DNA of 64,000 bases from Laetmonice hystrix (taxonomy: Eukaryota), in NCBI GenBank assembly GCA_965235115.1, contig OZ249436.1, forward strand, positions 30,258,001-30,322,000, given 5' to 3'. This document shows positions 629 to 63,627 of the stretch, piece after piece. How positions within the stretch are numbered: position 1 is the first letter of the stretch; the number at the start of each line of letters is the position of its first letter. Position numbers and translations under genes: made by a program. The notes under the pieces are model-generated. The model made no database searches. It had not been told where the DNA came from and worked only from the letters and a program-made list of their open reading frames with translations.

Positions 629-2316
629 GTGAGAAAGCCGTGTTCATAATGCATGTTAACAAACACGTAGCTTCTCTCTTTGTTTTTGTTTTTTTCTCTC
701 TCTTTTCTTGGTATGTATAATGTATGTCGGTGAGCACATGCATTTATACGTATTATGATACTACACAACCCACTGTATCCGTCCTAAGTGCATGTCTGCG
801 CATGCGTGTGCCCATTTCCGGTGATCACGTGATAGTGACCGCAGTGGACGGCTGTGACGTCACGACGGATCAGGTCACAAGGTCACAGGTCACACTTTAC
901 TTTCGCTGGAACACCCAAGGGATTGCTTCCGTGTGTCGCCCTGCTAAAAGTACCAGTCCTGTGTCAATAACTGTGCTCTTCAATCTCCCATTTACCCGTT
1001 GTTACTGTTCTGTTCAGCTTGATGTTGTGTTGGTTGGAAGTAATGCGTGGTAATTTCTTTCACTTAATTTTCGTCCTTCTTAGAAAAAAAACCTCAAAGT
1101 AAATCTGTTATTAGGCATCGAGTTGCTGCTGTCAGCCGGTTGGGTTTAGAACCTCTTTTAGCGACTGGCGACTTATAAAAGTAGTTACTGTCAAGTAGGC
1201 TGATCTAGTTATCTTGAAACGTGACCCATCATCGTAGAATAACGCCCTGCCTCTTTAGAAATTAAATACCCGTTGGTGTTAGATAGTATTACCAATAGTT
1301 TACTTACAATGATGTTTGAGGCAAGAGACGGATTTTGTGTCGAATCTAACCTCATGATCTGAATTCATAAAAAGGTTACTGGGATAGGTTTATGTAGGTC
1401 TATAACCGTGTAAAGTATTGAGGCCCACATGTCAATGTTGGTGCGAACAATCAGTTGTAATCCTTTGTGTTTTTGTGAGCTTACGATGTTTTGTTCTCTA
1501 TGGTTTTGCTTATACTTGCGCCATTATTGAATTATAACTGCTATTGACCAGCATTGTTCAGTGTCGTCAAGTATTGCTTGCGGAAGCACACTAGGCTAAG
1601 TCTCCAAAATCAATAGGCATAGCTTGAGTAGAAAAAGCCAATCTTTATGAGTATGAGCTCTGTAGGTCTACGCTTTCAGACGCCCATTACTTTCAAAACA
1701 ATGGTACTTGTATAGATGGAGTTTCCCCCTTATAGCTAGAAGGGGTTAAAATAAAAAAAAAGGAAGAAGTGCTCTGTAGGCCATTGCCATGCGGCTAACA
1801 GTGCTATCACTGTGTCACAACCCCGCTCAGTGTATGGGGGCTGCTCGGGTTAACAGCCTAGGTAAACCATGTGAAGAAAATAATGTGTACTACTAACTGT
1901 GAAAACAAAAACCAACATGCATGGTGACAGTATTGCATTGGTGGAGTTTGTAATCGCGAACTATCAATGTTTACAAAATGTTTGATTCCATAGAATGTGT
2001 TAATACGAGGGAGTATGTACACGAAATCACTGTTAACTTTGTACAGGTGGACTATATAAGACACAAGGCCAAATGTAGTATACATTTTTGTGTCCACTTA
2101 GTTTTTATTTTTATTTTTTTGTGTGTAAAAATTGTGTTGTGAATTGTAAAAACAATATGATACATTCTGAGCTCTTTTTTTCTTAAAAAGGTCTGTTTAA
2201 AAAAAAGACTGGATGGCCACAGCTATAGGCCTAGTGATGAAGCTGTAAATCTGATGAGATCTTCATTTTGAATTTTAAACATTTATTCCTTTGCCCTATC
2301 CCACCTCTCTAACTAG

Positions 2317-2454
2317 ACATCGACGAGTGCTACATCCACCGCGATCCGTTTGACGAGCCGTGTAAGGAGGAGGGAGCCTTGTGTATCAACACCCCGGGTA
2401 ACTTCACCTGTATACGACTGCAGGTCAGCGTACTCGAGGGAGAGGAGGAACAGG
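2317..2454 (+). CDS. Internal exon, calcium-binding EGF-like motif (D)IDECYIHRDPFDEPCKEEGALCINTPGNFTCIRLQVSVLEGEEEQ
   Basis: ctAG acceptor 2315-2316, GTAAGT donor 2455; 138 nt, phase 1-1; DIDEC and CxNTPGxFxC cbEGF consensus. Confidence 0.88.
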
Positions 2455-2703
2455 GTAAGTGTCACATGTTATAACCAACGCGGCCCTGAATGGAAATATT
2501 AAATGATGTCACATACGTAGGCCCATGGACGCTATTCTTGAAATACCCTTCATCAACTTTTCGCATTCGATCATGAACCGATCATGTAGACCAAAGTTTG
2601 CACAATATTGATAAGAACAATGAATCTCTTAAGAGTTGCACAAATATTTTATTGTGAGAACACGTTCGGATGCTCTTCAAAAGTGTTTCTTCTCTTTGTT
2701 TAG

Positions 2704-3134
2704 CGTTAGGACAGGTGGCACCTGGCCTTGCGGTGGCGTCGGACAAGGCAGGCGACGAAGATAACGTAGTGTCGTCTGTCTCCAACATCAAGCTGTCGAT
2801 GATTGCTATGGTTGTCTGGGTGATCATCGTCACCATCGCCCTCGTCGTCATCGGCGTCTTATCATTCCGCCGCTGGCGTCGGGACTACTTTTTAGACGGA
2901 CAAAGTAATTCCGAAGGCTCGCATTCTTCATCGGCTGATACGGATAGTGAACTTGGATCAAATCTGGGCACGGAAATGGGCATGGACGGCATAGCCGGCC
3001 TTTCTAACGGCGCATTTGAACACGATGATTTGCCGCATTCCGTCAGTGTACACGGAAGCAGTGCGCCAGCGGGCAGTGACTCCTCCGCAAACTCGGACGT
3101 GTTCACGCCAGATAGTGACGCGACGAGGTTGTGA
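2704..3134 (+). CDS. Terminal coding exon: juxtamembrane region, TM helix (MIAMVVWVIIVTIALVVIGVLSF), RRWRR stop-transfer, Ser/Asp-rich tail ending DATRL
   Basis: tttgtttAG acceptor 2702-2703 in phase 1 with the upstream exon; frame of ORF 2670..3134; TGA ends at 3134. Confidence 0.88.
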
Positions 3135-17862: not shown

Positions 17863-18074
17863 TCATCCCGTTACGTCACCTCACGCGGCACCTCACCGGG
17901 CACGTCACACGGCACCGCACCCGGCACGTCACATGACACCTCACGCGGCACCTCACCAGACAATTTACAAAATGTAATATTACATTTTGCGTTAGGCCTA
18001 CATTATAGCCGCAAAATGTAATATCGACGCAAAATGTAATATCATTTTGAACGATGACCTTTAAATGAAAGGGG

Positions 18075-19540: not shown

Positions 19541-20596
19541 ATTTTAAAAATTTCTATTTGAAATAACGGAATGACGTGGCTGACCTCGATTTCATTGATA
19601 TCACATTTTGTACGCATATTACATATTGCGGCTTTATAGTGTAATTTTGCGTCAATATTACATTTTGCGGTCCCACACCACCTAAGCATTTTTTTCTTTC
19701 CTTTCCAGACTGGTCACCACAGAAATCATGTTGTCATTTTGGTGCAGCAAAGTCACACCGCCGTAAAAAGAGACAAAGAAAATTATTTGTAAATGATAAC
19801 CGTAATTACAACTTTAGCAAAAAGAAAATGGGAATAAAAAAAATATTTTTAAAAAAATAAGAAAAAGAAAATGCAATAAAAAAAGAGATAGACACACAGT
19901 CAGTCAGTGCTAGTTGAGGGCTGACTTTAATTGCCTGGACACCCTGTAGGCCCGCACGCTACCGAAAGCCTAAGCAGTTGCGATGGGCCTTTATTTTTAT
20001 TTCGCTCAATTCGTCAAACCTGTTGTGTTGCAAGTTACCACGGAGTGAGTGAGGAGGTGACAGCGTGGACTGAGCATTGTTCAGAGAAAGCCAGAGGGCC
20101 CCCGTACGGACAGACGTCGTCCTCTTGTAGTACAGCGCCATCTGGTAGGTATCCCCTGAAACTATGCCTTCGAATACTGCCCACTAGCGGCTACCCTTGG
20201 AATTAAATCCCTTCCCTTCGATTCTCATAGGTTTGATAGGATGTCCAGTGGCGTACCCGGGGGAGGGGGGGGGGTGTGCTTGGGGTGCTTAAGCACCCCC
20301 CTCAATTTGCCCAATTTATTTGCACTTGTTGCCCCAACCCCCTCCCAATTTGCAGCGCCTACGATGTTGGTTATTTCCAGCAACCCCCTGGGTCCAGTTT
20401 CTGGGTAGGCCTAGATCTACGCCACTGTTCAAGAGTGTGTGCCAACTTGACATTTTTCCTATGAATGTCATTGCTACCTTCTACAGTATGCACAAATATG
20501 CTTGTACTGGCCAGGGAATGATTTAAAACGTTAAATACATCTGTTTTGCATAATATTAGGTCATTATTGCAATGTTTGTATGCATATCTGGTATTG

Positions 20597-22206
20597 TTAT
20601 TATCCCATCCCCCTACACTACAGGGGGATGGGATCTTGAAATTGTATGGTCTTTGCGTTGTAGTAGTAGTAAACAGTACGTCTATCTCAGTGAGTTTTCA
20701 AGATACCTCAACCAAACTTGGTAGGCATCTTGACTATGACGAAGTCTGGTCAGACAATGAGTCATGACGTCACGTGACGTAACGTCATGACGTCAAATTT
20801 TTGGGACATTGGGGGCCATTTTTAAAGTTTGTATTGGGAATTTACAATATCTATCAAGGCAAGGTGACTGGGCAAGGGTCTTGCCAAAGACTGACCCTTC
20901 GTTTGACCTTTGACCTTTGACCTTATGGAGAACTGGGTCCTAGGTCGTAAATCGGTTAAATCCCTACTTCTTCTTCATTTTTTGATAAAACTTGACAATA
21001 TTTGGCGGAAGGACTCTCTGACAAGAGCTTTTCAATAATCATCCAAGGATAAGCGATTTGACCTATTTTCGCGGAGTTACGTGACATTGAAATTTTTAAC
21101 AGTGCCCTGTTTAGGTATCAATGGCTATAACTCGAAGATGCTTCTGTTAAAGGGCCATGTCTATTATTGTACACAAATAGGAAGTGATATGATCTTTCGT
21201 TTGGCACCATTATTTCTAAGGATTTGACCTATTTTCGCTGAACCACTTGACCTGCAAGTTTCAAAGTTAGGTCATTTGGAAGATTCCTGGCTTGAACTCT
21301 TGAAAGATTTGAGACAGAGCCATAATTGTTCATGAATACACACCTTGACCATGACAAAGACAGGTCATACAGTCTGTCATGACGTCACGTCATGACGTCA
21401 TAACGTCAAACGTGATTTGTACATTGAGGCCATTTTTTAAGCTCATATTGAGAATTTCTAAAACCCATCATGGTGCTATAATCAGGCATGGGTCATGCTT
21501 AAAATTGAACCTTCATTTGACCTTAGACCTTTGGGAGAACTGGGCCTCACCTTACAAATTGGTTAAATCGCTTCTTCTTCTTCTTCTTCTTCTTCTTCTT
21601 CTTCTTCTTCTTCTTCTTCTTCTTCATCCATAGAATCATCCAGGGATAAGCGATTTGAACTATATTCGCTGAATCACGTGACCTTGAAGTTTTTAAACAG
21701 TGGTCAGTTTAGCTATCTATGGCTACAACTTCTAAACAGTGCCAGATAGGGCCATAGTTACTATTGAAGACGAATAGGAAGTCCTATATGCTCTTTCATT
21801 TGGCACCATTATTTATCAGGTCACGTGACCTGTGACGTCATAACGATGTCAACCATACTTTCTCAGGGATATAACTTGTAAATGGTTGAAGTTAGAGCCA
21901 TAGTTATACTATTAAACACTAATAGGAAGTCATATATATGCTCTTTCATTTGGCACCATTATTTTTCAGGTCATGTGACCTATGACGTCATAACGATGCC
22001 ATCCATATTTTCTCAGGGATATAACTTGTAATTGGTTGAAGTTCGAGCCATGATTACTATTAGACACTAATAGGTAGTTACATGTGCTCTTTCATTTGTC
22101 ATAATGACATAATGTGCATCTTCTAAGGCTTATAAGTCGTCATGGGTGCATGATAGCACCATTGTTATCGCTTCTCTGAATGTGGTATCACCACAACGTA
22201 TCTAGT
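20597..22206 (+). mobile_element. Non-autonomous Helitron/Helentron-like element with internal tandem duplications and (CTT)18
   Basis: 5' 13-bp perfect stem atcccatccccct/agggggatgggat (20602-20634); 3' hairpin tgtggt-atc-accaca then CTAGT (22202-22206); ~620-bp and ~150-bp internal repeats; no TSD seen. Confidence 0.6.
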
Positions 22207-23549
22207 GTTTCTTGTTCCCATGCCTTTATTGTCCAGGAGGCAGGCCATACGTTTCGTCTATCATTTACTCCCATCTAATCTGTGTCCCCTACAGACCATC
22301 TGTAAGCGTCCGACAGTGTTGTCATGTAGTCCCAATGGCTGTTTGTCGTAAAAGTTGAATTAACAATGGCAAATGACGTTGTACGCCTTTCCTATATCTG
22401 AAAGTCTGAAAGTTGCTCGAATCAGAAACGTTTCCTAATAATCCCAGAGAGTCAGCGAAGTCTCGTCCGCGTAGTACAAGATCTAAGAGCGCGCCCAAGT
22501 GCGGGCTTCCTAATGCCAAGAAACTACGTTCCGCGGAACGGGAGAACTCCACATCTGCTCGTATCCCAAGCCAAACCACATACAACCCAACTGTAAGGTT
22601 GCGCGTCTATATATATATCTCTGGTAGTTTTCGGGGGATTTTCTGTGCACGTGACTAAACCTGCACTTCCTGAACCTATGGATCGTTTGCGCTGGTAAGG
22701 TGGATGAGTTATTGCTTTGCTGCTGTACCTGTTGAACCTAAACCTGCTGTCGGTGTGGATACGCTAACATAGAAAATTGTCTGATTAGCTGAATCTGATG
22801 TCTAAAACCGTATTCGTGAATATTTACTAGTAGTGTGCTCCAACACACCAGAATTCCTTGTGACCAAACCCGCAGAGACGCTGTAAGTATCTGAAGAAAT
22901 CAATAAACATGTAAGAGAAGTACGTATGGCGTTTGTCCTTTTTGTGTGTATGATTTTCAAAGTGTCCACTTCCTGTCGGCTAATCTCATCAGGCAGCGCC
23001 CTAGTGTCTGAAGCCAAGCTGTCGATTGGGCGGGATCGGGGAACGCGGTAAGTGTTAGGAATGATCTGCATAACATGTTTAAAAAGGCGCAAAAAAGTAT
23101 TAATGAAATATAAAGGCTTCTGTTGGTTTTATTTAAAAATTAAACATTTACCGTAAGTTGTGCACATGTTAATCTAGTATACATACATCTATATGGCACA
23201 GACAAGAGTGTTAAAATAAAAAAATAAAATGTTGGATATGACCAGGTTAATAACGCCAATCAGTGATAGGATATACAGTGGTCCAAAACACATGATTTTT
23301 CCTCAGAAAGACAGCGTCGTGATGACCGGATCGGATCCGCCATGTGTTGGGGGCTGTCAGACCACATCGAAATTTTAAACTAAAGGAAACATAAGGCTTT
23401 CTTCAGCGGACTCCAGTGCAATAGTTTCCACCTATCTCAAAAGATGGCGCTGACAAAAATACAGCGCCATCTTTTGACATACATGGAAACTATTGCATGG
23501 GAGCCCGCATTCGGAAAACCTCGGCCCAACTTCCGGTCGCTTCGCTAGT

Positions 23550-33443: not shown

Positions 33444-33880
33444 TTTGCTCCAGTCTGAGGCCAGTCAATACCTGTAGAGAACCCTCACTGTAGTGTTTGC
33501 TCGAGTATAAGGCCGGTCAATAGGCCTACATGTAGGGAGCACTCACTGTAGTGTTTGCTCCAGTCTGAGGACTATCAATACATGTAGAGAGCCCTCACGG
33601 TAGTGTTTGCTCGAGTATAATTAAGGCCAGTCAATATATGTAGAGAGCCCTCACTGTAGTGTTTGCTCCAACCCAAGGGTATTCAATACATGCAGGGACC
33701 CCCCATGGTATTGTTTGCTCGAGTGTAAGGCCAGTCACTACATGTAGGGAACCCTCACTGTAGTACACATGTATGTGCTTGCGTATAAGGCCGGACAGTA
33801 CATGTTGGGAGCCCTCACTGTAGTGTTTGCTCGAGTATAAGGCCAGTTAGTCCATGTGGGCAGTCTGAGGCCAGTCAATG
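33443..33880 (-). repeat. 52-bp satellite, ~8 copies, reverse orientation relative to 53084-54955
   Basis: ccctcactgtagtgtttgctcgagtataaggccagtcaatacatgtag is the reverse complement of the 53-55 kb unit. Confidence 0.93.
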
Positions 33881-36800
33881 AAATGGGTCTATCTGTTTCC
33901 CCTAAACAGACGTTAAGGCGTACGACCATTCCATTTGCCATTGTTAATTAAACCTTTACGGCAAATTGCCATTGGGACTGCTTGACAACGTGGTCGGACG
34001 TTTACAGACGGTGTATAGGGGAAACAGATTAGACTCTAGATGGGAGTAAATGATCGCCCAAACGTAGGCCTATCGCCTGCCTCCTGGACAGTAGATCTCT
34101 AAAGCCATGGAAACATGAAATGATGTGACATAAATAAATAAATATGGCGTATGTGTACAGAAATAGCAGGTTTTATACCAACATCTCCACCTTTCTGTCT
34201 GCTTTGAGAAGCCGAGAGTGTCTGCCAACTTGACATTTTTCCTATGAATGTCATTGTTACCTTCTTCAGTGTGCACAATTATGCTTGTAGGCTACTGGCC
34301 AGGAAATGATTTAAAATGCTAAATACATCTGTTTTACATAATATTAGGTCATTATTCCTATGTTTGTATGCATATCTGGTATGGTAATTCGCTACTGGAA
34401 TTTTCGCATAGTAGGCCTATTCGTAAATATCGTAAATAAATATGGTGTATGTTTGCAGAAATATAGCTGGTGTTATACCAACATCTCCACCTTTCTGTCT
34501 GCTTTGAGAGACTGTCGGCTCCTTGCTAGGTATAGCAACGTAAACAGCCAACTCTGTTACCTCCTTTGGCAATAACAGGATGTCCTCCGCCTCGCGTATA
34601 TTTCCATGAGATGGTCCTGACAGGCCTGAAGGCGAACTACGCATGGGGAATTCTAAAAACTTCAAGTGAACTGGCAATCTGGCAAACATATCTCAAGATA
34701 TCAGATCACTATCTTATTCGCGATATGTTGGCCAACAACCAAATAGTCATAAGCGGTAGAAATATTTTTCACTACTTTCGGCAAATTATCATGTTTAGAT
34801 CGTAGGCCTACATTCCTTTTAAATAAAAGTATGCGACAAACAAAAATTTAAAAAGGGCATTTTCCTCGCATTGTGAACTCTCATGGCCATGATGCACTTT
34901 TTTTTAAAAAAGTTGTAAGATGTCTACAATAAAACAAAAAGAGAGGATACATAGACAGATCTAGTGTTAGCAGGCCTACAGGTCTATAGGGGCCTAGTAG
35001 GCCAAAGTTCTGCGGTCGAGTTACTGGTTGACTCATTGGGTGACGGCTGTAAATGGCACTATTCAACAAATGTGGCTTAAAAAATATATATAAAATAATA
35101 TATTTAAACCGTATAATCTTCAAATATATATTTCTCAAAGCTAAAAGTTTGATCATTCCCAATTTAGATTTTTTCCATGAGGGATAACTTTAGCTTGACT
35201 TGTGGCGCCACCTGCCGTTATACGGTCCACATTACGGCCTCATGCCTGTCGGTGGCTCAGTGTGACAGGATTTCTTCACAGACTATTTAAAAGAAAGAGA
35301 GAGAAAGAGAGAAAACCTGCCTGGGTACATACACAACTGTTCTTTATTTGTTCTCTACATGGGCTTATATAAAGCTGAGATCCATCAATGTTTTGCCATC
35401 CCCATCAGTAGGGATCTTTTATCGTACATCATTGGTGCAGAGACTTGCATGCGTAATAAGAAATTCCATCATTAGCGAGACATCCAGGACCTTTTCTGTG
35501 AACCATAGAACGTGTTACACGTTCATATATTTGTGAATATATAGCAAACGTTTACTAGAACAAGGATAAACAAGTATGCACGGCTTTGGAAAATTTGAGA
35601 TGTTGACCATAGTTGGGGAAGTACATTCTCGGTGAACATTGAAGCGTACACTTAGCCAGATTCAAATAGTTTGTGAGTTCGATTCACAGACTGTCACACG
35701 TGTAATGTGATATCTCCGAATGGAATCAGCCTTCTAATAGTTAGCAAAACTGTCCATAAGAAACAAAATGACACAGGATCATTACATACGACCCTCTCCC
35801 ACAAAAGAAAACTACATTCAGTGAGATTTGTTTTCAAACGACAGATTCCTATAGTGACATAAGCCAGTGGATGTGGGAGGCACGCAGATCTTTTTACTCT
35901 ATCATATGGACATTAAGTGTCATTTTCAAAAATAATCTGCATCAAGCTTTACATTTTGTGTAACTACCCCGACCACCTCCTTGGTCGTTTAAACTTAATG
36001 TGCGATTTGCTTGAAATATATATCTCGGACCAGGAGGCCTCCTGTGTATCACTGTGTATTCGTAAGTTACACAATGTACCTGTCTACAGTTCACATGACA
36101 GGCATAGTCTCTGGCAATAACCATTGAGATATTTCTTCTTCCATAATAATGTATGATATACTATTACAATGTTTCCTTACCACAACCCCTACCCGTACCC
36201 CTGATCATCGACTTACGTTAGATAATTTGTTCAAGATTTGATGCAGCATGATTCTGGGTTCCGTCCAATTTCACCATTGACATCGATTCAGAATCTTTGG
36301 CAAAAGCAATTACTTTAGATTACCGTATACACGGACATGAGGTGATATGTGACTTAACCTGAACCATTTAGGAACGTAATTTTCACATGCTATGCTCAAT
36401 GAAATGACACATTTGTCAATCGCATACATAGTTTGACATTTAAATATAACGGGGCTAACATAAATAATAATCTTTGTTGAGAGTATTTCCAAATATTTCT
36501 GGTCACCTGGCCCTTACCACGAGTTATCGGCGGTGACCTGTTCCATATATTCAGTCGCTTGTGGCCCTCAAGAATTGGTCGAGTTTTATATACCACAAGA
36601 ACACGTAAAGTGTCAGCTCTCTAAAAGACACCAACTTTATTACCTTGCTCGTAATATTCAGGGAACGCCCTATTCTATCTGCGCTGTCACTAAGTTGGTA
36701 TCATGAGAAAAACGCTTCTAAAGTTTATGATATAAATCTCAAAATCAACATTTCCAATCAAATTGGCAGTTATCTGCACATGACCCTGAGGAACAAGTGC

Positions 36801-38356: not shown

Positions 38357-38638
38357 TCACAGCATGACCCTTTCAGTATGGTTTACCTTCTCCTGACTAC
38401 CAGACTGGCTGGTGATCTCATTGTGAACCTTATCATCCCTGATCACATCCCGACTGTTGAGAGCGACCTGTTCCTCCTCAAAGGGTTGACCTTCCGGCCG
38501 GGTCCCACACCAACAGGTCGATGGCAGGGTGTCCGGGAGGGGCTTGTTGAGGGTTTCGGGTAACGCAAAGCTGAGAATACCACACGCAGTGGCTAAACAT
38601 CCAAACACAACGTAAGGCAACGGTTTGGAGTACTTGTC
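38357..38638 (-). CDS. SLC22-family organic cation transporter, coding exon 10 (DKYSKPLPYVVFG...LPETLNKPLPDT...ERVML stop)
   Basis: cttccAG acceptor; LPET motif after the last TM helix; 282 nt including TGA. Confidence 0.93.
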   Translation of the reverse strand, partial: DKYSKPLPYVVFGCLATACGILSFALPETLNKPLPDTLPSTCWCGTRPEGQPFEEEQVALNSRDVIRDDKVHNEITSQSGSQEKVNHTERVML

Positions 38639-38814
38639 CTGGAAGTATACACAAGTGTGACTCTGAGTGAATTGGTTTGTTTCTGGGCGAGAGGAAGAGG
38701 GAGTTATAATGCTAGAACTAGTGTGTCAACTCAAGTTAAGTGAACATGGAATTGTCATGGCATTGTCATGGAATTCTTGTCTATTACTGTCATTACCACA
38801 ATGTATAGACTCAC

Positions 38815-38887
38815 CAAGTACACAATCTGAGGGGCAAGAACTCCCCCAACACGGGCGGCCATCGAGCATGCTCCAACGCCAATATTC
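38815..38887 (-). CDS. SLC22 transporter coding exon 9 (RNIGVGACSMAARVGGVLAPQIVYL)
   Basis: ggcAG acceptor, GTGAGT donor; 73 nt; family TM11 motif. Confidence 0.93.
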
Positions 38888-39086
38888 CTGCCAATAATGT
38901 AATATTCAAATATAATAACAAATACAAAAATAATCACAGAGCTATAAATGGCAAGCAATTTAATAACACAGACCTACATCATCATCATATATCGTAAACA
39001 ATGATCAATCATCAAATATAAATGCTATGAACTAGAAGTTTCCTGGCTGTGAATATTTAAAAAGAAAAGCCCAGCTTCTCCTCTAC

Positions 39087-39207
39087 CTGACTACAGTTGG
39101 GAAAACCTCAGCAGAATAGACTTGAGCAGCCGCCCATCCCCCAGCTATGCCACACCGTCCCAGCAAGGCTAACGCAGTCGTCAGCTTTGGCATGGTTTTC
39201 AGTTTAC
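39087..39207 (-). CDS. SLC22 transporter coding exon 8 (GKLKTMPKLTTALALLGRCGIAGGWAAAQVYSAEVFPTVVR)
   Basis: ttcAG acceptor, GTagag donor; 121 nt; YSAEVFPTVVR matches the SLC22 ELFPT motif. Confidence 0.93.
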
Positions 39208-39514
39208 CTGAAGCATCAAAAGCATGGAACCTTCAAGTCATGAACGAGTAAGCACAACTGGCCACAAGTTACGACTTTCATAATTTATTTTACATTTCTT
39301 GACACAGGTCCCTACAGCATATCTCACTGAATATATATATATATGTTGCTAGATCATTGAAGCACTGTCTTTACATTGAAGTTCATCTATCATCATATAA
39401 TACATTTACTCACACCACATTTTTACTCAAGTTATTTTTCACTCAGTACTGTCTTAGGTAGGAAGTGCAAATTCCTTATCATTTGATTATTTTTTCTCAG
39501 ATTTCACCACATAC

Positions 39515-39597
39515 CTGTTAGATCTACAAAAAAGATGGCAAACATTGAGACACCTGCCATCAACATCAGAAAACATAAAGTTTTCCGCCGTCCAATC
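39515..39597 (-). CDS. SLC22 transporter coding exon 7 (RIGRRKTLCFLMLMAGVSMFAIFFVDLT)
   Basis: tacAG acceptor, GTATGT donor; 83 nt; second MFS GRR motif. Confidence 0.92.
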
Positions 39598-39906
39598 CTG
39601 TAAGGAGAAATTAGATCCGAGTAGATGACAACTTGGTATAATATCATTTGTACTTTACTCACCTGAATCATGTGACTAAGGTGCGGAAAGTTATCTCCTA
39701 AACTTTTATTTCAATCAAACATCTTTTCAATTTTTTGCCAACCACTGCTGATAATGTGATCAGGTGGCTAAAAAAATTATAGGAACCTTTTATCCTTCAT
39801 TAAAATTATAAGTTAATTCAATGTAATTCAACATTAGAACAAAGGTGAAAGCAATCAGAAAATATGTTTGAACCATTCAATAAAAATTCGCTTGCAGTAT
39901 ACACAC

Positions 39907-40041
39907 CTATTGTTAACAAGGACCACAAAGATAAGGGCCGGAATCTCGACGAGTCCTGAGAGAAAAACGTTGATGTATTTATTGCCAGTCAGGTTGCCAA
40001 TGTTAAGGGAGGTACCATAGTAAACAGCACTGCTAACAAAC
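39907..40041 (-). CDS. SLC22 transporter coding exon 6 (WFVSSAVYYGTSLNIGNLTGNKYINVFLSGLVEIPALIFVVLVNNR)
   Basis: tacAG acceptor, GTgtgt donor; 135 nt; YYG and LVEIP motifs. Confidence 0.93.
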
Positions 40042-40240
40042 CTGTATCAGAAAACAAAAAATTATGATACAAAAATAATTTACATGATTCAAAATATGAT
40101 TTCATAAAGAGTGCCCACTGTCCAAAGATCCCACCTATGTGCACTAGTTACCGGTAATTACATCGACAATACAAAATTAATGAAACTGTAGTTAAAAGGA
40201 GATGATGAGACGCTCGGAAGAAAAATCTTAACATAGTTAC

Positions 40241-40341
40241 CATGCATAGGTGAGAATGAATGTATTCTTGGTCATGTATATATTACGACACAGATCCCAA
40301 TAACTGTACTTCTCCTGCTGCCTCCGTCTCTCCATCTCTCG
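40241..40341 (-). CDS. SLC22 transporter coding exon 5 (REMERRRQQEKYSYWDLCRNIYMTKNTFILTYAW)
   Basis: tgtAG acceptor, GTaact donor; 101 nt keeps frame between exons 4 and 6. Confidence 0.88.
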
Positions 40342-40501
40342 CTACAACAACATCATCATTTAGTACAATATTACAGGGGAACTACACAAATTTCCTTTTC
40401 AAATTCCCTGTGTTTTCCTTGTGTTTTCCCTGTCCCACAATATATTTTATTATATTTAATTTGCAAATGAAGAAAACTTTTAATTATCTTGTTATACTCA
40501 C

Positions 40502-40634
40502 TGATGCATAGACTTGAAGCTTGTCAAAGTTTGGTATTTTTCTTTTGTTGAATCTTGCCATTTGTGAGAGAATATCTGTTGCCTCATCGATCCTGCCTTT
40601 CTGAACTAACCACCTGGGACTCTCCGGGATAAAC
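40502..40634 (-). CDS. SLC22 transporter coding exon 4 (WFIPESPRWLVQKGRIDEATDILSQMARFNKRKIPNFDKLQVYAS)
   Basis: ctgcAG acceptor, GTGAGT donor; 133 nt; PESPRWL signature. Confidence 0.95.
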
Positions 40635-40941
40635 CTGCAGAGATATGTGGGTACACATATTGCAATCATATTGCACAGAAAGGAGAAAGATCTCATGAAT
40701 TTTACATGTGGGTACATGGATAGAGAAGTTCCTCTGTATCTCAACGAAGCCATCTGTGGCAATACAAGGAGTTTTACACTCATTGAGCTGCACCATTGAG
40801 CTGAAGGTTGAATACACCCCTAAACTGTGTTAAAATTTATAGTAGAATCAAGGATGGTTACAAAATGGCCTTCATGATCACAATTATTCACAGGTGTGCA
40901 AATTATGCAAAATCTACTTAAATAATTGATCTATTCCTTAC

Positions 40942-41131
40942 CACCATGTAAACATCAGTAGGATTCCACCCACTGATGTGGTCAGTGATAATATTCTCCA
41001 GTCACGGATAAAGAAAGCCAGCAGTGCTAAAGTCATCACTCCGCATGCCCAGAATCCAATACACCCACAAAACGTCCGCCACTTGGGTCCAACAAACTCC
41101 AAGGGCAGAACAAAATTTATCAGCAATGTCC
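40942..41131 (-). CDS. SLC22 transporter coding exon 3 (GTLLINFVLPLEFVGPKWRTFCG...IRDWRILSL...FTW)
   Basis: tttttgcAG acceptor, GTAAGG donor; 190 nt; EFVGPxxR and RDWR motifs. Confidence 0.94.
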
Positions 41132-41370
41132 CTGCAAAAACAAAAGTAAAATGAAGCCTAAAAAATAAGTGTCAGAATTATATGTATAAAGTGTCCTGTT
41201 TTACAAAAATCTTTGCAGTAGGGCTTTTTCAAAATAGGAAAATGGATAGAAAAATACTTTAGTGTTATAGCTCAGACAATGCATATATTGCCACATATAT
41301 CATAGCAAATAAGTCCCTTAATCTTATCAAGTACAACAGATGATGCCTCTCACAACAATCGTATACACAC

Positions 41371-41602
41371 CCCCTACAAAGCCTCCAACAAAGAATCGAA
41401 ACACAGCATAGAGTTGCCATGAATTGGCAAATGATGCGATGAAGCCTGCGAGAAGAAGTAACATGTAGACAATGAAGAAGACACGGCGCCGACCAAAGGT
41501 GTCCGCCAGCTGCCCAGTGATGAGAGCTCCGATAAGAACCCCCATCATCTGGATGGTGGTGATGAGGTGACCGATGTAGTCCTGCCCACAGATCAGGTCC
41601 CA
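41371..41602 (-). CDS. SLC22 transporter coding exon 2 (WDLICGQDY...GQLADTFGRRR...FRFFVGGFVG)
   Basis: ctgcAG acceptor, GTgtgt donor; 232 nt; WDLxC and MFS motif A (GxxxDxFGRR). Confidence 0.94.
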
Positions 41603-41820
41603 CTGCAGACACAAACAAAATACATGTATACCTTGGTACTACTGGGTCACACACCTGGCATCAAAGTCGAAACATTCAATTCAGATCATGAGATGGTATT
41701 TTTTGTTGTTGATGGGGGGGGGGGTGGGGGTGGGGGTGGGGGGCAAGATGGAATGTATCATACTATCATACAGATTCAAGGAATTGTACAATAGGTTTGT
41801 CAGAAGCTGGAAGTAACCCG

Positions 41821-42168
41821 CAGTGGTGTCAACTTTTTTTCAGCAACTGGTAGCCCGGGACTAAGCATCAGGAACCTACTAGCCCGAACTTTCTGTCCAC
41901 TAGCCCGAATTCTATTTTTGGTCTTTATGTTTGTAAAATGCCGATATCAGAGAGACTTTACACTCAAAGGAGGTGAAACCCTGGCCAGGTGACTTTTCCC
42001 TGGCTAAAAATACATGACATCATGAATGATTATATATGATCAAACCGGGATTTCAAGTAGTCAAATGGACTATTAAGCTAGTAGCCCGAGGAAGCATGCC
42101 CTTGGTCTACTCTGGTAGCCCGATCTGAGAATTCAGTAGTCCCGGGCGTTAGAAAGTCATCACTACTG
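41821..42168. mobile_element. Intronic MITE with CAG...CTG ends and tagcccg subterminal repeats (hAT-like)
   Basis: cagtggtg / cactactg; flanks aacccg / aaccct. Confidence 0.65.
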
Positions 42169-42199
42169 AACCCTATCAATATTATAGTTCTACACTTAC

Positions 42200-42541
42200 C
42201 TCTGTGACTATAGACGTGAATGGTGCAGTATATTCATGCCCCTGACATGGTGAGTTGTCTGGTAGACACCTGTCTATATCTTCTGTACCATTGCCAAATA
42301 TGGCACTGGAGTTGCCAGGGCCCGAGACAAAATATGGTGAGCTACTTGGGAAAACCGTGCTGTTTGTGTCATTGTTTGAGCTGCTGAATGCACATGTCCA
42401 TGAAGATTTGCTCGATGCAAAGAGTGATATCAGCATGGCCCATGCTGCTGGAGTTTCAAATGCACTCACGAGGAGAAAAACACGCACTTGAAATGGACCA
42501 AAGCTACCGATCTCATCCAGCACTTCTTCAAATTCAGACAT
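42200..42541 (-). CDS. SLC22 transporter coding exon 1 (MSEFEEVLDEIGSFGPFQ...FTSIVTE)
   Basis: ATG at 42541; family N-terminus FxxxLxxIGxFGxFQ; Cys- and N-glycosylation-site-rich loop; SIVTE|W across GTAAGT donor; joined CDS 1692 nt. Confidence 0.94.
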
Positions 42542-43842
42542 CCTGCACTGATCAATTAATATCACAGTTGAAGCGGGTGTCACAGTCCCAGAGCTTTACA
42601 TGGGTTATGACCTCAACAATATAATCATTCTTGTATCTGTTGGCATGGCAACTGGGCATCATATCCCTGACTCAATGATGTATCCATTCCTGAAAGAAAA
42701 AGCTTTAAGGTAAACAACCATTTGTACATTATACGTCGATATAAAGAAAGCAATACAAGCTGGGTTTCCTGGAGGCCTGCTTTATGGGGAGATGCTGCCC
42801 AAAGAATTACTCCCCCCCCCCCCCCCAAAAAAAAGAGAAAATAGCATATACCCGATAGATCACTGCAGTTTTTTCACCTGGAGTCTCACCTCAAAGTTTG
42901 GGCTGTGGCCACTGGCCATCTATCCAGGCCCTGCCCCCCCCCCCCCCCCCCCGTCCCACAGAGCCAGACGACAGGATAGTTCCCCGAATCACAAACCAGT
43001 GGTCACTACACTCGCATTTGGACTGAGGACTTACAAATTTAATTATTAATTTTTAAATCTGGCTATATCATTATGGCCTGTCTATTACTTGGGAGGGAAG
43101 AGCTCAGCCATTCCAGTAACCTTTTTCCCTGACCATGAGATCCAAATCCTCCCTGCGGCTACCTTTTGGGTGTGGCGCTTTGTTACGTACATGTACATGT
43201 ATGTACCAGAGATGCCTGTCCTGGGTGCCACCAAAAGGTGGACCACCAAATCTCACCAAATGGAGCCCCTCCCCAATGTCCTGAGTGGAGTTGTGGCAGA
43301 GTCATCTCTGCTCTCTCTCCCCACCTGATGTAATGTGCGACTCATTATTGTCTGGGAACATCTAACATCGAGTAAACATTCCCATGTAACATCATACACC
43401 AATCCTAATCCTATTCAAGAGTGAATATTTCTCTCTACAATACCTAAAACACGACATGTGTGTGCCCAATGACATTACACTGCCAGGGGGAACCAACTGG
43501 GGGGAACACACACCTCCCATACTTCTAAGTTCTGGGCTTTCATAACGACATTTGCCCTAATCATAGGGGTCATCCATTTGTGTACGTAGGCCCCCCTCTC
43601 CCTATAGTTCAGCACATGCACCCCACATCTAGCACCTTAAATGTCAAATGTAATTTTGTCAGGGCAGTCTGTTTGTATCCATACTGGTTAAATGAATCAT
43701 CAGGGTTGTCACATTCTAGACAATGATGACTTGTGATGATCAATTCACTGGCCACAAAATCACAAATAGCAGCACAGTGAAGAACGGCCACAAGTTCCAG
43801 CAGTTGATTTGCATTCTGGAAAAAGGCTGAGGGGGCATTTAG

Positions 43843-45376: not shown

Positions 45377-47146
45377 ACCCTTACACAGGAGAGTTCTACA
45401 TCACGAGCGCCACCTGTTGAACAACGTTTCTGAAGGTGCTACCATCTGCTGGTGACGAAATGAAGGAGGATTTGGCTTGGGCAGATCAATTTCTGTTTTT
45501 TTTTCTTTCTGTCTTTTTTCACATTCTCTAACACGATTTTTTTTCGACGTAAGCCTATATTTTTGATATTATGATGTAATTTAAACTTATTTGAGATGTG
45601 TTCCAATCCAGTTATCTCTGGAAACCGAAACCAAAAGATCTCTGGACTGCCAGGGCCGGATCCAGCTAGCCTAGGCCATGATTCTTTTTTTTTTTTTTTT
45701 TTTGGGGGGGGGGGGGGGCACAGTGTGTATAGGTGGATGAATGGATCCATAAAGCTACCTGACATGGGCAAGGCCAAGGGTCACTCAGTAGGGCCTATAG
45801 GGGGAAAATTTCGGGGGGCTAGCTGTGCCCCCCCCCCCCTAAATCCGCCACTGACTGCAGCACATAAAACACAACGTTTTCTCGCCTGTTGGTCTAATAG
45901 GCCTATAGATTCTAGGCCCTAACAGATAAAGAATTATAACTATAAGTTTTAAAGCTCTCTTTTCCTTTGATCGCGGCATGCTCCGCCCTGAATTTGTGGG
46001 TCTGTTTTAGCCTAGGGCCCGTGACCATTTGTTTTGAGTCTGATAACCCGTAAGCCTCCTGAAGCCAGAAACTTTTTTTGATAGGCCTAGCCGGCAATCT
46101 TTTACCTGCTGGGATGGCGTTCCTCATCGTGTGATATGACGTAAAAAGGCTGGTTTAGACCATAGATCTATAGTCCGTCAGCTGACCTTCGGCCGATCAT
46201 CATCATCAGATATAAAAGTTTCTGGCTTCAGGAAGGGTGTCTTGTATAGGGAAGTTAGGTTTCACTTGGAACCAAAAGGTCCTGTACGGGGGAGAAGGGT
46301 TTCTTGTAGGAAAGTTAGGTTCCACGTGGAACCCAAGGGTTCTATAAGCCTAAAAGGGTTCCTATTATGAAGGTAAAGTTCCACATTGAACATAGATGTT
46401 CTTTAGGCCCTGATACTTTATTGAGTCAGACGAAGGTTGTTCGATCTCAAACTGCGCATGATCGCCCTAGGCGAGCATGCGCAGCAGGACTGCTCTCCAG
46501 TTTGGGAGGAACTAAAAACTGACGCACCTGTTGCCTTGATCGATTTGGAAGGCAGCGAATTACGTTAATTGACAGCTTTTTAAGCAAAATATGTTAGAAC
46601 ATAGACGCTATAGGAATTAAGCCTACCGATGTCAGGGGACATATCAGGGTGGATACGGATCTGGGCAGCCGTGGGTTTCGGCCGCCTGCATTCGTCCCAC
46701 TCGGATTCGTGTGATGTTGACGGAGGTCATGGCCCCTGAGGCCCGGCGCCACTCTGACTCCGACCGCGAGCAATGGCAGCTAAAATAGTGTCAGCATGGT
46801 CAGCACAGACCTGCTGCGTTTAGTTGTGACTGTGACTGTGGGACTGACCCCCGTCAATTTGCCACCCGCCTCGGCTGCCTTTAGCCTAGTATAGCCTAGC
46901 CCTGGCATGCAATAGATTAGCCCTGGAACGTCACTTCCGGCCAGCCCAATAGCAACAAATGGCTGCGCTGCTGAAGCGATTTTGACACGGTTGTCATGTT
47001 CAATATATATGACTTCTTGGAATAGGGGGACATTTATTTCCAACCACTACTCTGAAAGGTGAGTATATAGAGGCCTTGCAGCTGTCCAAATGTGATTTTT
47101 GACTGGACTTTAATTTAAGGATCTTGACACTTCTGACGACTGCAGA

Positions 47147-47617
47147 GGGGCTGTCCATAAATGACGTCATGCCTTTTTGGGCCATTTTTGACCCCCTCCC
47201 CCCTATGTCATGTGCCAGACCCCAGACCCCCTAAAAAAATTATGTCATGTGTCCAGTAACCCCCCCCCCCCCCCGAAGTACAGTCTACAGATACATAAAA
47301 TAGTTATTCAGAATAGTAAATATGTGTTTAACATCACATTAGGCACTCAGAATGCCACCTGTAGATTGCTTTATTTTTAATATCTATTTTAATACTATAG
47401 ATTTCCAAGAGAGGAGATTATTTTAATTATTTTTACTTTTAAAATAGAGACTTCAATACCAAGTGGCTTGAGAGCCACTAACCTAGAGTGGCTAAACTAA
47501 AAAATTAAGACATGACGTCATACATGATCTGACCCCCCCCCTCCCCCTTGTCATAGCTTGTCATAAAATCCCCCCCCCCCTCCCCCCTTTGCCATGACGT
47601 CATTTATGGACGACCAC
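47147..47617. mobile_element. MITE with 3-bp target duplication (PIF/Harbinger-like)
   Basis: TIR ggggctgtccataaatgacgtcatg / catgacgtcatttatggacgaccac; AGA on both sides. Confidence 0.8.
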
Positions 47618-47660
47618 AGAGAAACTGCTTAGGCCTAGTCTGATAAGCATTAGGGCCTAT

Positions 47661-53083: not shown

Positions 53084-55170
53084 TATACTCGAGCAAATAC
53101 TACAGCGAGGACTCACCACATGTACTGACTACAGTGAGGGCTCTCTACATGTATTGGCTGGCCTTAGACTGGAGCAAACACTACAGTGAAGGCCCCCCAC
53201 ATGTATTGACTGCCCTTGGGCTGGAACAAACACTTCAGTGAGGGCTCCCTACATGTATTGACTGCCTTTCGGCTGGAGCAAACACTAGGGCCTACAGTGA
53301 GGGCTGCCAACATGGACTGACTGGCCTTATACTCGAGCAAACACTACAGTGAGGGCTCCCTACATGTATTGACTGGCCTTATTGTCGAGTAAACACTACA
53401 GTACGTGAGGGCTCTCTCCATGTAATGACTGATCTTGGACTGGAGCAAACACTAGAGTGAGGGCTGCCCACATGTATTGAGTGGCGTTATACTCGAACAA
53501 ACACTACAGTGAGGACTCCAACATGTACTGTCTGGCCTTATACTCGAGCAAACACTCCAGGGAGGGCTCCCCACATGTACTGACTGGTCTTATACTCGAG
53601 CAAACGCTACAGTGAGGGCTCTCTACATGTATTGGCTGGCTTGAGACTGAAGCAAACACTACAGTGACGGCCCCCCACATGTATTGACTGGCCTTATACT
53701 GTAGCAAACACTACAGTGAGGGCACTCCACATGTATTGACTGGCCTTATTGTCGAGCAAACACTACAGTGAGGGCTCCCTACATGTATTGACTGGCCTTA
53801 TACTCGAGCAAACACTACAGTGGGGGCATTCTACATGTATTGACCGGCCTTATTGTCGAGGAAACACAACAGTGAAGGCTCTCTAAATGTATTGAGTGGC
53901 GTCAGACTGGAACAAACACTACAGTGAGGGTTGCCCACATGGACTTAATGGTAAGCGAGCAAACACTACAGTGAGGGCTCCCCACATGGACTGTCTGGTC
54001 TTATACTTGAGTAAACACTACAGGGAGGGCTTCCCACATGTACTGACTGGTCTTATACTCGAGCAAACGCTACGGTGAGGGCTCTCTACATGTATTGGCT
54101 GGCCTTAGACTAGAGCAAACACTACAGTGAGGGCCCCCACATGTATTGACTGGCCTTATACTGGTGCAAACACTACAGTGAGGGCACTCCACATGTATTG
54201 ACTAGCCTTACTGTCGAGCAAACACTACAGTAAGGGCTCCCTACATGTATTGACTGGCCTTATACGCTAGCATACACTACAGTGTGGGCTCTCTACATGT
54301 ATTGGCTGGCCTTAGACCGGAGCAAACACTACAGTGAAGGCCCCCTACATGCATTGACTGCCCTTGGGCTGGAGCAAACACTACAGTGAGGGTTCCCTAC
54401 ATGTATTGACTGCCCTTCGGCTGGAGCAAACACCACAGTGAGGGCTGCCCACATGGACTGACTGGCCTTATACTCGAGCAAACACTACAGTGAGGGCTCC
54501 CAACATGTACTGTCTGGCCTTATACTCGAGCAAACACTACAGGGAGGGCTCCCCACATGTACTGACTGGCCTTAGACTGGAGCAAACACTACAGTGAGGG
54601 CCCCCGACATGTATTGACTGGCCTTATACTGGAGCAAACGCTACAATGAGGACACTCTACATGTATTGACTGGCCTCATTGTCGAGCAAACACTACAGTG
54701 AGGGCTCCCTCCATGTAATGACTGGCCTTGGGCTGGAGCAAACAGTACAGTAAGGGCTCCCTACATGTACTGAGTGGCGTCATACTCGAGCAAACACTAC
54801 AGTGAATGCTCTTTGGATGTATTGGCTGACCTTAGACTGGAGCAAACACTGCAGTGAAGGCTTCCTACATGAATTGCCTGCCCTTGGGCTGGAGCAAGCA
54901 CTACAGTGAGGGCTCCCTACATGTATTGACTGCCCTTCGGCTGGGGTAAACACCTTATGCTATGCGAATGGGTGCAGTAATCTTGGGTCCGGGGTTCGAT
55001 TCCTGTAGAGGACTATACAACTTTTCTCTTTAGGGACATTGTCAAAGTAATTGGGTTACCCCTGATGCCCGTGCATTTCAAAAGAAAAATACAGCGAGGG
55101 CTCCCTCCATGTAATGACTGGCCTTGGGCTGGAGCAAAGAGTACAGTGAGGGCTCCCTACATGTATTAAT
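53084..55170 (+). repeat. 52-bp satellite, ~36 diverged copies (interrupted ~54955-55090)
   Basis: Consensus tatactcgagcaaacactacagtgagggctccctacatgtattgactggcct. Confidence 0.96.
54958..55060 (+). mobile_element. Possible tRNA-derived SINE fragment within the 52-bp satellite
   Basis: Pol III B-box GGTTCGATTCC at ~54993-55003; A-box weak, no cloverleaf. Confidence 0.35.
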
Positions 55171-55854: not shown

Positions 55855-56110
55855 TCTACGGACAAATCTGAATATATGCGGACATTATCTAGCCGAATTC
55901 TGCGGACAAATCTGAATTTGCGGACATATCTAGCCGAATTCTTCGAACAAATATGAATTTCCGGACAAATCTACTCGTGTTTATGCGGACATATCTCAAC
56001 TTCTTGACATAACCCGCTGATTTAGATGGACACAACTACATCCGCAGACATAGGGCCTATATCTAGCCGTGACTTTTTCACTGGACAAAATTAATCTAGC
56101 CGCTTAGCCA
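55855..56110 (+). repeat. Short degenerate tandem repeats (gcggacaaatctgaatt / gcggacatatctagccg)
   Basis: Direct reading; probably subterminal repeats of a MITE. Confidence 0.7.
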
Positions 56111-61502: not shown

Positions 61503-61699
61503 AGCCGCTTTCACATGCACACGGTTTGCGGTGTGCGGCATGCGGCGTGCGTTTTTGCAAAAATGGAACAACTGAAAATAGATATAACCGTTCACATGTC
61601 TCCGGTTTGCGGCGTGCGGCGATTTACATTGGCTACATTATTAACAAAAACGCACGCCGCATGCCGCACGCCGCACATCGTATGCATGTGAAAGCGGCT
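61503..61699. mobile_element. Palindromic MITE with TTA target duplication (PIF/Harbinger-like)
   Basis: TIR agccgctttcacatgca / tgcatgtgaaagcggct; TTA both sides. Confidence 0.88.
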
Positions 61700-62127
61700 T
61701 TACCCCAGTCCCAGTAGGAGATACAACTTACAACATGACACGACCAGGCTGCGACTGTAAATCGCAGGCAATCTCAGAAAAGTCCTGCCACAAGTCCTGG
61801 GTGGTCGTGGTTAGTCTTGAATATTCGCACAACCAAAATCAGTCGCAGAGAGGTTGTGGATCATGTGCAACAACCTGGCTGCGACTGGCGACTGAAGAAG
61901 TCGCAGCCTAGTCGTCACTTGTGCGACGGTCGTGCGATGGTCTTGGGACAAGACTGTGGTGGTTGCACATTGTTATGACTGATCGTAGGATTATCCTGTC
62001 GTACAACAATTACACGACTTTCCCCGACCAGTCTCAGGACTTGTTTTGCGACTAGAGCTGATAGCACGACCAGTCGCATCGTCATGCGAGACAAGTCGTG
62101 CGACGGGCCCTTACCACTCGCACGTAA

Positions 62128-62752
62128 AGCCTAGGTCCCACTAGGACCTGCGATTCCCTGCGATTAGTTCAGTCGTGCGACTAGGGCTAGTCGTGGGTAG
62201 TCGTCCATATTTCTTGCGATTTGAATGTACCGGTCACATTGTAAGACCAGTCAGGAGACCTAGAAGACCTTACCCCGCTGATTAGTCTTGACCAGTGGCA
62301 GAAACAACGCAGGACAACTCACAGGTAGTCATACGAGTTGTCCTCCAGTTGCACGACTTGTCTTCCTTCTTCCCCCGCCTGGTCGTCCACCCAGGTCTGG
62401 TCGCACGACAGGTCGTGCCAGTGGTCGGAGACAGTTGTGCGATTGTCCTGCGACAAAAGTTTCCTACGTACATGTCACCCATGACAATGAACCAGAGATT
62501 TGTGCCCAAACCATCGCACGACCATCGCAGGGCAACTGATGACTAGGTTGCGACAGGATGCGACAGGATGCGACAGGATGCGACTACTTCAGTCGCAGGC
62601 AGGTTGTTGCACATGATCAACAACCTCCCTGCGATGGATTTTGGTCGTGCGACTATGGAGGACTACCCACGACCACCCAGGCCTTGTGGCAGAACCTTGT
62701 CGTACAAAAGGACTGGTCGCGGGTAATCGCAGGTTCTAGTGGGACTGGGGAT
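62128..62752. mobile_element. MITE with ~40-bp imperfect TIRs and TAA/TTA flanks (PIF/Harbinger-like)
   Basis: gtcccactaggacctgcgatt / aatcgcaggttctagtgggac; a related partial copy starts at ~61703. Confidence 0.7.
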
Positions 62753-63627
62753 TTACGACAGTTATCTGCGACGAATCGTTGGGTCGGAAGAAATCTAGCA
62801 GCGCTAGATTTGTCACGATAAATTGTGACAGACAAATCGTCTCAGACAAATTGTCGTAACGTGTGTCACCGCCCCCCCCCCCCTCCCACATGCAGTCGTT
62901 ATTCGTATGTTCCTCGTCCAATCAGACCGGTCTGTTTGGATCATGTGACTGGTCGGTATAATCGTCGTAACGTCTATCACCCCCTTCCCCGTCGTCGTAG
63001 CCGACAAATAATATTATTGTCGGCGACAAAAAAATCGTAACGTGTAGGCCTATCATGTGCTTCATTGTATGATGTGGTATATCTCTGCAATGAAGGTAGT
63101 CACGGCATGACGGCCGCCGGTCGGGACGTGTGCCCGCCTTCCCGTCATGAGTCAGTGACTGCAAAATGTATAAATAATATTGGCAGCGACCGGTTCAGGG
63201 CTCCACTTAAGATTTTTCCCCCTCACTAATGAAGAGACTCTGAGACAAACTATATGTATCTTCGTGTCTACTGTTATAACCTTAGGCATCAAGTTAGACG
63301 TTTTTTATTGGTTTTCGTACAGGCTTCTATGGATATATCTTAGTTATACATTTTAATGTATCATATATTGTCTGAAATTCTTTCAGAATAGAACACATTG
63401 GATAAGGAGACATAGGCCTACGTACATTTATAAACTGTAAAAGATCAAGCCCATGAAGACACCTGACTCCCCCTCTTTTAAACTCTCTTTTTCTCATTTA
63501 TGTGGCCTTTTAAGTAGGGCAACCCTCAATTGTAATACCTCAAATGCAATGGTCCAATAATCCTGCAAAGTCTCCATTCTGCTATCGTTATTATGTCAAG
63601 GGGTTTAATCCAATGAGGTCCACATGC

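Follow-up and report, generated by a model that had tools for sequence, protein, structure and literature searches.

Frequent TA-flanked insertions in a 64-kb stretch of the Laetmonice hystrix genome as probable scars of transposon excision

A 64,000-nucleotide stretch of the Laetmonice hystrix genome (contig OZ249436.1; the whole stretch is referred to here as the window) raises the question why one palindromic 8-mer, TAGGCCTA, recurs over its entire length. The window is repeat-rich DNA of animal type with ~44% GC, and it contains 27 exact copies of the word, spread from 2226 to 63413. The data point to insertion at plain TA dinucleotides, and we consider it probable that the inserts are Tc1-type excision scars, in which a departing inverted-repeat transposon starting with GGC(C) left two of its terminal bases on either flank, to be sealed by end joining.

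Word counts and insertion at plain TA

For background counts tandem arrays were masked, which left 54,456 bp, and expected numbers were obtained from order-2/3 Markov backgrounds on the masked window. Outside the arrays TAGGCCTA occurs 26 times where 0.64-0.67 copies are expected, a ~40-fold excess (P ~5e-32), and it ranks first both among the 256 TA-NNNN-TA words and among the 256 palindromic 8-mers. An earlier sequence-only reading, which had put the word at about 27 copies against about one expected, was accurate on this point, and within the window the excess survives background correction and masking of the tandem arrays. Related words are raised as well: TAGGGCCTA/TAGGCCCTA (6 vs 0.26 expected), TAGATCTA (6 vs 0.82), TACATGTA (10 vs 2.3), TAGAATCTA/TAGATTCTA (3 vs 0.39) and TAGACTCTA (2 vs 0.21). 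The enrichment that had been claimed for relatives of the word holds for TAGGGCCTA/TAGGCCCTA and TAGATCTA but not for TAGGCTA/TAGCCTA, which shows no significant excess in the masked window (8 vs 4.6, P=0.10) although the copy at 34288 is a genuine insertion. Neither TAGCTA (8 vs 9) nor the 5-bp cag/ctg class (4 vs 8.1) is in excess there. One-mismatch neighbours of TAGGCCTA number 25 against 15-16 expected, so most copies are little decayed; by our own estimate, which has a wide error, the excess suggests roughly 4% divergence. The GGCC series amounts to ~0.57 excess scars per kb, or roughly 0.35% of the non-tandem sequence.

Empty counterparts were sought by collapsing each family site to a plain TA and searching the result in the window, with 315 TA-NNNN-TA words as controls. 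After removal of four further matches that were self-overlaps, a true empty paralogue was present for 6 of the 63 family sites and a second filled copy for none; four of the 315 controls matched, each at the five-mismatch limit. All six paralogue comparisons made earlier from sequence (53286, 33521, 34288, 34030, 34065 and 34092, each against an empty TA) were upheld. Insertion with duplication of TA was observed in these six in-window pairs and additionally at 34412 and 56051.

Alignment of 41 units of a 52-bp satellite revealed the 6-bp insert in one unit (33521), the 7-bp insert in another (53286) and neither in the other 39. Other indels of at least 3 bp in these units number about six, one of them holding TACACATGTA. 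Read contigs were available from three runs of one sample, which is perhaps the assembly's own source, and are therefore not independent; in the respective runs, 37, 42 and 69 contigs have loose ends that match the empty form of the 33521 site. At 34412, 27 contigs of run X1 diverge from the window after 34413 with letters that start like the post-scar sequence. The insert at 56051 does not occur in the three other copies of the local repeat, one of which carries a single extra T. Because multi-copy relatives carry the plain TA, the long forms at 33521, 53286 and 34412 are insertions, their direction being set by copy majority; the same direction is likely at 56051, and for the four two-copy pairs we infer it. 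TA alone is duplicated at 33521, 34288, 34065, 34030, 34092 and 34412, as in Tc1/mariner (ITm) elements, whereas 53286 is also compatible with a longer duplication and 56051 carries an extra TA. The satellite itself forms two arrays of opposite orientation (33444-33890 and 53081-54955). The read depth of its first bin exceeds 500,000, compared with ~30 for single-copy DNA, and the family must therefore be very abundant.

Insert structure and the proposed excision route

The flanks of TAGGCCTA follow the pattern purine-TA...TA-pyrimidine at 45 of 54 positions (background 0.53, P=4e-6). T before TA is rare (5/54), and a C before the left TA or a G after the right TA, which repair from a flank hairpin would require, is found at four positions. 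Among the cores the mirror-symmetric combinations GG|CC (26 vs 0.67), GA|TC (6 vs 0.82) and CA|TG (10 vs 2.3) are raised, whereas the mixed cores GG|TG (1 vs 2.1) and GA|TG (1 vs 2.2) are not raised in the window. GG|TC occurs five times against 1.3 expected, resembling another one-transition neighbour (4 vs 0.95); by our own arithmetic an independent choice of GG or GA at each end would give roughly 23 GG|TC, far above this number. An element with two inverted ends would be expected to leave just this pattern of mirror-image halves without raised mixed cores. The cores thus have the ITm form of two to three bases per inverted end, independent of the flank, and the bases would stem from the element ends.

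Longer variants retain two bases on one side (GG|GCC, GG|GGCC, GA|ATC and GA|GATC), and the longer forms could also arise by slippage in the G run. No GGG|CCC or GGC|GCC was found in the window, where the expected counts are near zero. Among the 5-bp inserts listed, GGC/GCC is the commonest and GGG/CCC the rarest (123 vs 11 in the metagenome loci described below; 8 vs 0 in the window), which makes it more likely that the element ends start with GGC(C) than with GGG. A self-complementary 4-base GGCC overhang with direct religation cannot be separated from this model of two bases per end.

In the proposed route, an element with GGC(C) ends would enter a purine-TA-pyrimidine site with duplication of the TA. 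Upon excision the transposase would leave about two end bases on each flank, like Tc1, after which fill-in and blunt ligation would produce mainly TA-GG-CC-TA and, less often, GG+GCC, GG+GGCC and the 5-bp GGC form. Families with GA or CA ends would yield TAGATCTA and TACATGTA in the same way. The events would have to occur in germ-line or stem cells, i.e. in cells that pass their DNA on. The small scars could then drift upward in frequency while the elements move away, and scarred TAs could be struck again to give nested scars.

Excision of Tc1 generates non-complementary two-nucleotide 3' overhangs, and in the C. elegans germ line these undergo theta-mediated error-prone repair with a varied outcome, 26 distinct products in 103 (PMC4490562). 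In somatic cells a +4 scar is typical (78%), and non-homologous end joining makes >99.9% of the empty sites (PMC13148408). The footprint of Sleeping Beauty is cag or ctg (PMC5224488), and Passer leaves 0-4 bp (PMC9976928). Judged by these precedents, the window scars resemble what Tc1 leaves in the soma, apart from the identity of the end bases and from their presence in an assembled genome. The likeness covers the TA duplicated around a 4-bp core that fits two bases per end, the single dominant product (PMC13148408, PMC4490562) and the TACATGTA class, which has the same shape. Unlike Tc1, the window has GG|CC or GA|TC cores, no transposase was identified in the window scans, and the scars occur in the assembly at ~0.6 per kb, whereas in C. 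elegans germ cells homologous or theta-mediated repair leaves mixed scars. TAGGCTA/TAGCCTA has the same form as the Sleeping Beauty footprint (PMC5224488) with GGC replacing CAG; it is represented by the insertion at 34288 and by a fourfold excess in the metagenome loci, but in the window this 5-bp form is minor and not significantly raised, and the 6-bp form dominates. Canonical Tc1/Sleeping Beauty ends, CA(G), were rejected as the source in view of the dominant GG|CC core and the lack of cag/ctg excess; only the minor TACATGTA class fits them.

The PHIS superfamily comprises PIF/Harbinger, ISL2EU, Pangu, NuwaI, NuwaII and Spy (PMC4482050, PMC4122938). Ends starting with a purine are usual in this group (A or G in PIF/Harbinger, AG or GG in Pangu), as we propose for the window, but the duplications are TWA, AT, ANT, CWG, TNA or none, compared with TA in the scars. 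PIF/Harbinger, Pangu, NuwaI and NuwaII were rejected on account of their 3-bp duplications (TWA, ANT, CWG, TNA; PMC4482050) versus 2 bp at 33521, 34288 and 34412, and ISL2EU because it targets A|AT|T and duplicates AT. Sailor/DD82E belongs to the ITm group and has non-canonical ends and a TA-containing target (PMC8533490), and the TATA flanks of the resident element at 29129-29755 recall it; this group was also rejected, since it duplicates TATA and usually has GT or CC ends, whereas the window scars duplicate TA only and start with GG or GA. Genome-scale excision in rice has likewise been described as a force for genetic diversity, but the events there are heterogeneous (8/94 perfect, most with deletions or filler) and do not produce one stereotyped word (PMC4423477). 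PMC4455052 yielded no end sequences for comparison. Two short palindromic elements in the window (44314-44469 and 13721-13894) recall the published NuwaI-type PHIS elements, since their ends are of the GGGCC/GCCCC type and they seem to be flanked by CWG-like duplications of 3 bp.

Metagenome loci, candidate sources and rival explanations

A metagenome collection was queried for three TAGGCCTA words within 30 bp of each other. This returned 120 stretches, and ~4,200 are estimated for the whole collection from 2/64 parts. Words were counted outside the query clusters. A filtered set of 60 of the first 80 loci (267,511 bp; L081-L120 not included) was obtained by dropping loci of <1 kb, with >50% GC or with telomere-like sequence, together with L001, L002, L011, L017, L020, L035, L062, L066, L075 and L080 as tandem or long. 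Several of the loci can be recognized as animal-type by domains such as 7tm_1, SRCR, SOCS box and matrixin. All 120 loci together (364,268 bp counted) contain 166 words, a density of 0.46 per kb. In viral contigs with paired words, which served as negative control, the density is 0.02 per kb, with 17 further copies over 1.09 Mb. In the filtered set there are 153 copies of TAGGCCTA against 4.1 expected (0.57 per kb), accompanied by GG|GCC (17 vs 1.4), GG|GGCC (6 vs 0.37) and GGC/GCC (123 vs 30.5), and the flank is a purine at 232 of 306 positions. Cross-locus BLAST gave thin support, with 5 of 59 indels of 3-10 bp duplicating TA and two of these belonging to the GGCC series. Some of the metagenome matches are tandem or telomere-like arrays: in L049, L064, L092, L097 and L101 hexamer arrays grade between TAACCC, TAGCCC, TAGGCC and TAGGGC, so that in some DNA the word can also arise from such arrays. 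A repeat at 20726-22101 of the window, with 150-bp internal units, shares by eye a short conserved stretch with repeats in L006, L015 and L044.

The sequence-only reading had suggested a search for transposon families with a TA target-site duplication and GGC/GGCC termini. No convincing family of this kind emerged from the window or the 120 metagenome loci. In the window the inverted-repeat search gave two candidates among the matches listed, and in the loci it recovered elements ending in TA|CA as well as arrays of repeats, none of them a credible TA|GG family. In the weak candidate at 46404-47659, one nested insertion is bypassed by contigs that connect 46446 directly with 47116. When non-scar starts were paired with scar ends, 3 of 495 combinations reached the terminal score of this candidate, which is within chance; what looks like its right end may be a scar only. 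An inverted-repeat element with AGA on both sides (47145-47612) is nested inside this candidate. The resident element at 29129-29755 is skipped by contigs of two of the three runs (29130-29751), and a 25-base pattern for its end had 0 matches in the metagenome scan. It is probably not the main source, since the GGG/CCC 5-bp class that it predicts is absent from the window.

Several observations weigh against excision as the origin of the scars. Ungapped and gapped searches of the window for inverted repeats bounded by TA, like the search of the 120 loci, yielded no convincing TA|GGC-ended element, and Pfam detected no transposase domain in the scanned frames (30 of 175 in the window, 108 of 121 in the loci), which is far too little sequence to exclude one. 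The combination of TA duplication with GG ends appears in none of the groups compared, going by their main-text descriptions. Scars in C. elegans germ cells are heterogeneous, so that uniform inherited scars would need a soma-type repair. An empty counterpart is known for 3 of the 27 exact words, and a shared origin of the remainder is assumed. The word density in the loci is biased upward because the loci were chosen for word clusters, and the GG|TC count in the loci (23 vs 6.3) fits decay and independent ends alike. The footprint branch of the sequence-only reading is supported by the TA-duplicating insertions and mirrored cores, and the missing source element is its main weakness.

Of the alternatives, the least improbable, though its chance is low, involves no transposon: a host nuclease would cut at TA, and telomerase or a polymerase working without a template would extend the two broken ends with G-rich bases before they are rejoined. 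This would explain why scars are numerous while no element is seen. GG and GGG after TA would match telomere-repeat extension, and the telomere-like hexamer arrays in five loci contain the same words. However, the insert ends are paired rather than independent in the window, and longer additions of telomere type number 0 in the window and one in the loci (267 kb). TA is seldom preceded by T, GGG/CCC is missing or the least frequent among the 5-bp inserts, and telomerase leaves the GA|TC and CA|TG classes unexplained. It is improbable that the inserts were copied into TA from a nearby GGCC by polymerase theta or slippage. Such a template does lie ~10 bp or less from 33521 and 34065, but GGCC within 25 bp occurs at 6 of 27 sites versus 15.5% of all TA sites, which is no real excess; the identical insert also occurs between flanks that are unrelated to each other, and no template is evident for 34030, 34092 or 34412.

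Similarly improbable is that selection maintains the word as a binding site for a protein, or that the long form is ancestral and was lost by deletion between two TAs. In favour of this, the sites are clustered, with a dense group at 45.6-47.7 kb upstream of a transporter gene, and copy majority does not fix the direction for the four two-copy pairs. Against this, the word occurs in single units of a 41-unit satellite, contig majorities are empty, and three different family words within 72 bp of one copy would have had to pre-exist and to be cleanly deleted one by one; selection could shape retention but leaves the origin unexplained. Flank-hairpin (P-nucleotide) footprints are known from hAT and RAG, where the insert repeats the neighbouring flank in inverted form. 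Hairpin-opening repair, the other branch of the sequence-only reading, has in its favour that the words are palindromic and that 34030 has a partial flank palindrome, but the inserts are constant while the flanks vary, the complementary flank base is present at only 4 of 54 positions, and the flanks keep to purine-TA...TA-pyrimidine at 45 of 54. Since the inserts ignore the flanks, we regard it as excluded for practical purposes, except for a hairpin formed by the end of the element instead of the flank. An assembly or library artefact has a negligible chance. The three runs do come from one sample that is possibly the assembly source, but 0-difference contigs span 34765-36239 and 45861-46239 at single-copy depth, so the words there are present in reads; in addition, one-mismatch decay products are above chance, and the same series occurs in separate public contigs.

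The scar chemistry is already known, whereas the element behind it is unplaced: judged from its predicted ends and target, it would fall outside the definitions of the groups compared and is not assigned to any named family. As a tentative and less probable extension of the excision proposal, an uncatalogued and widespread group of TA-targeting transposons whose ends start with GGC(C) may produce a stereotyped 6-bp insertion in many animal genomes through soma-type end joining in the germ line; a cut-and-fill process of the host is the less likely agent. No publication describing TAGGCCTA as a genomic scar was found in a search that left most subscription papers and Repbase entries outside; of 283 papers containing the string, none of the 40 listed deals with this topic, judged by titles and opening lines of abstracts. 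If excision is the origin, each scar records one past insertion and one excision, so that a genome would reveal how active its transposons were, which targets they chose and how the germ line repaired the breaks, even after the element has become rare or vanished. Excision would also account for an over-represented palindrome that motif finders might take for a regulatory site. The contrast between uniform inherited scars and the C. elegans germ-line pattern amounts to a testable claim on germ-line repair in Laetmonice hystrix. Under the wider extension to many animal genomes, the scars would be a major unrecognised signature of small insertions and a base-resolution record of transposon traffic after the elements have gone.

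Distribution along the window and neighbouring features

Coordinates of scars, paralogues and candidate elements in the window
Feature	Position	Strand	Basis or remark
TAGGCCTA, starts	2226, 7321, 17374, 17993, 20406, 29333, 31175, 33521, 34065, 34412, 34803, 44572, 45898, 46082, 47630, 55298, 55519, 56543, 57083, 59867, 59986, 60189, 60343, 61109, 61419, 63045, 63413		exact match
7-bp-insert class, TAGGGCCTA/TAGGCCCTA	3280, 4992, 45789, 45913, 47651, 53286, 56051		word match
8-bp class, TAGGGGCCTA	34987		word match
GA...TC class, TAGATCTA	20412, 38134, 39519, 46163, 47680, 57912		word match
GA...TC class, TAGACTCTA	15594, 34030		word match
GA...TC class, TAGATTCTA/TAGAATCTA	12090, 45906, 59823		word match
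GA...TC class, TAGATCTCTA	34092		word match
TAGGCCTA at TA of one 52-bp satellite unit	33521..33528		1/41 units; 32 empty matches
TAGGGCCTA at TA of one 52-bp satellite unit	53286..53294		1/41 units; 34 empty matches, one with 0 mismatches
Three scars within 72 bp: TAGACTCTA 34030, TAGGCCTA 34065, TAGATCTCTA 34092	34030..34101		empty TA at 22276, 22248, 22227
Inverted paralogue of 33915-34120, empty at all three scar sites	22208..22389	-	
TAGGCTA, 5-bp insertion at TA	34288..34294		empty TA at 20505 in paralogue, ~90% identity
Paralogue of 34215-34389 with empty TA at 20505	20432..20601	+	
TAGGCCTA with empty multi-copy counterpart, newly found, in read contigs only	34412..34419		
TAGGGCCTA plus one extra TA (9 bp), newly found, in degenerate copy of short local repeat	56051..56061		
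Nested scars, TAGGCCTA then TAGATCTA, one TA in common	20406..20419		
Three abutting scars (45898, 45906, 45913)	45898..45921		0-difference read contig spans 45861-46239
Weak candidate resident element, TA-flanked, GGCC ends, two nested insertions	46404..47659		11/14 terminal bases inverted
Resident inverted-repeat element, ~620 bp, G-run ends, TATA both sides	29129..29755		inverted-repeat search
MFS transporter coding exons (presumably SLC22-like)	38360..42595	-	Pfam on one frame; exon translations

The spacing of the sites is clustered (P=0.001 for 33 family sites, 0.01 for the 26 exact words). Dense groups are located at 33.5-35.0, 44.6-47.7 and 55.3-63.4 kb, and nested scars occur at 20406 and 45898. 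The minus-strand MFS transporter gene at ~38.4-42.6 kb, which from its motifs we take to be an SLC22 member, was recognized by Pfam in the frame 41330-41638 (MFS_1, E=3e-11; Sugar_tr, E=4e-10). The earlier observation that TAGGCCTA is missing over this gene is correct, as there is no copy between 34811 and 44571 (9,769 bp). The avoidance that this seemed to imply does not follow: random placement gives a gap of that length with P=0.13, and a longer gap exists elsewhere (7329-17373, 10,053 bp). Other scar words are present inside the transporter gap, namely TAGATCTA at 38134 and 39519 and TACATGTA at 37876, 41621, 43188 and 43194.

Some scar words lie within other features of the window. The word at 2226 is in an intron of a plus-strand gene whose last exons (285-3134) encode, as judged by eye, cysteine-rich EGF-like segments and a hydrophobic membrane segment. 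The copy at 17993 is in the left arm of an inverted-repeat element (17968-19680) built around a 1.4-kb G-rich, strand-skewed minisatellite. Further inverted structures include arms of 407 bp with 94% identity around a short core (23550-24744) and nested palindromic elements with TTA/TAA flanks at 61500-62760 (61502-61700; 62123-62757). A 5.2-kb foldback-like element at 47852-53081 consists of two inverted arrays of a 157-bp unit (~15 and ~17 copies, 98% alike), which meet near 50290 and terminate in 35-bp perfect inverted ends.

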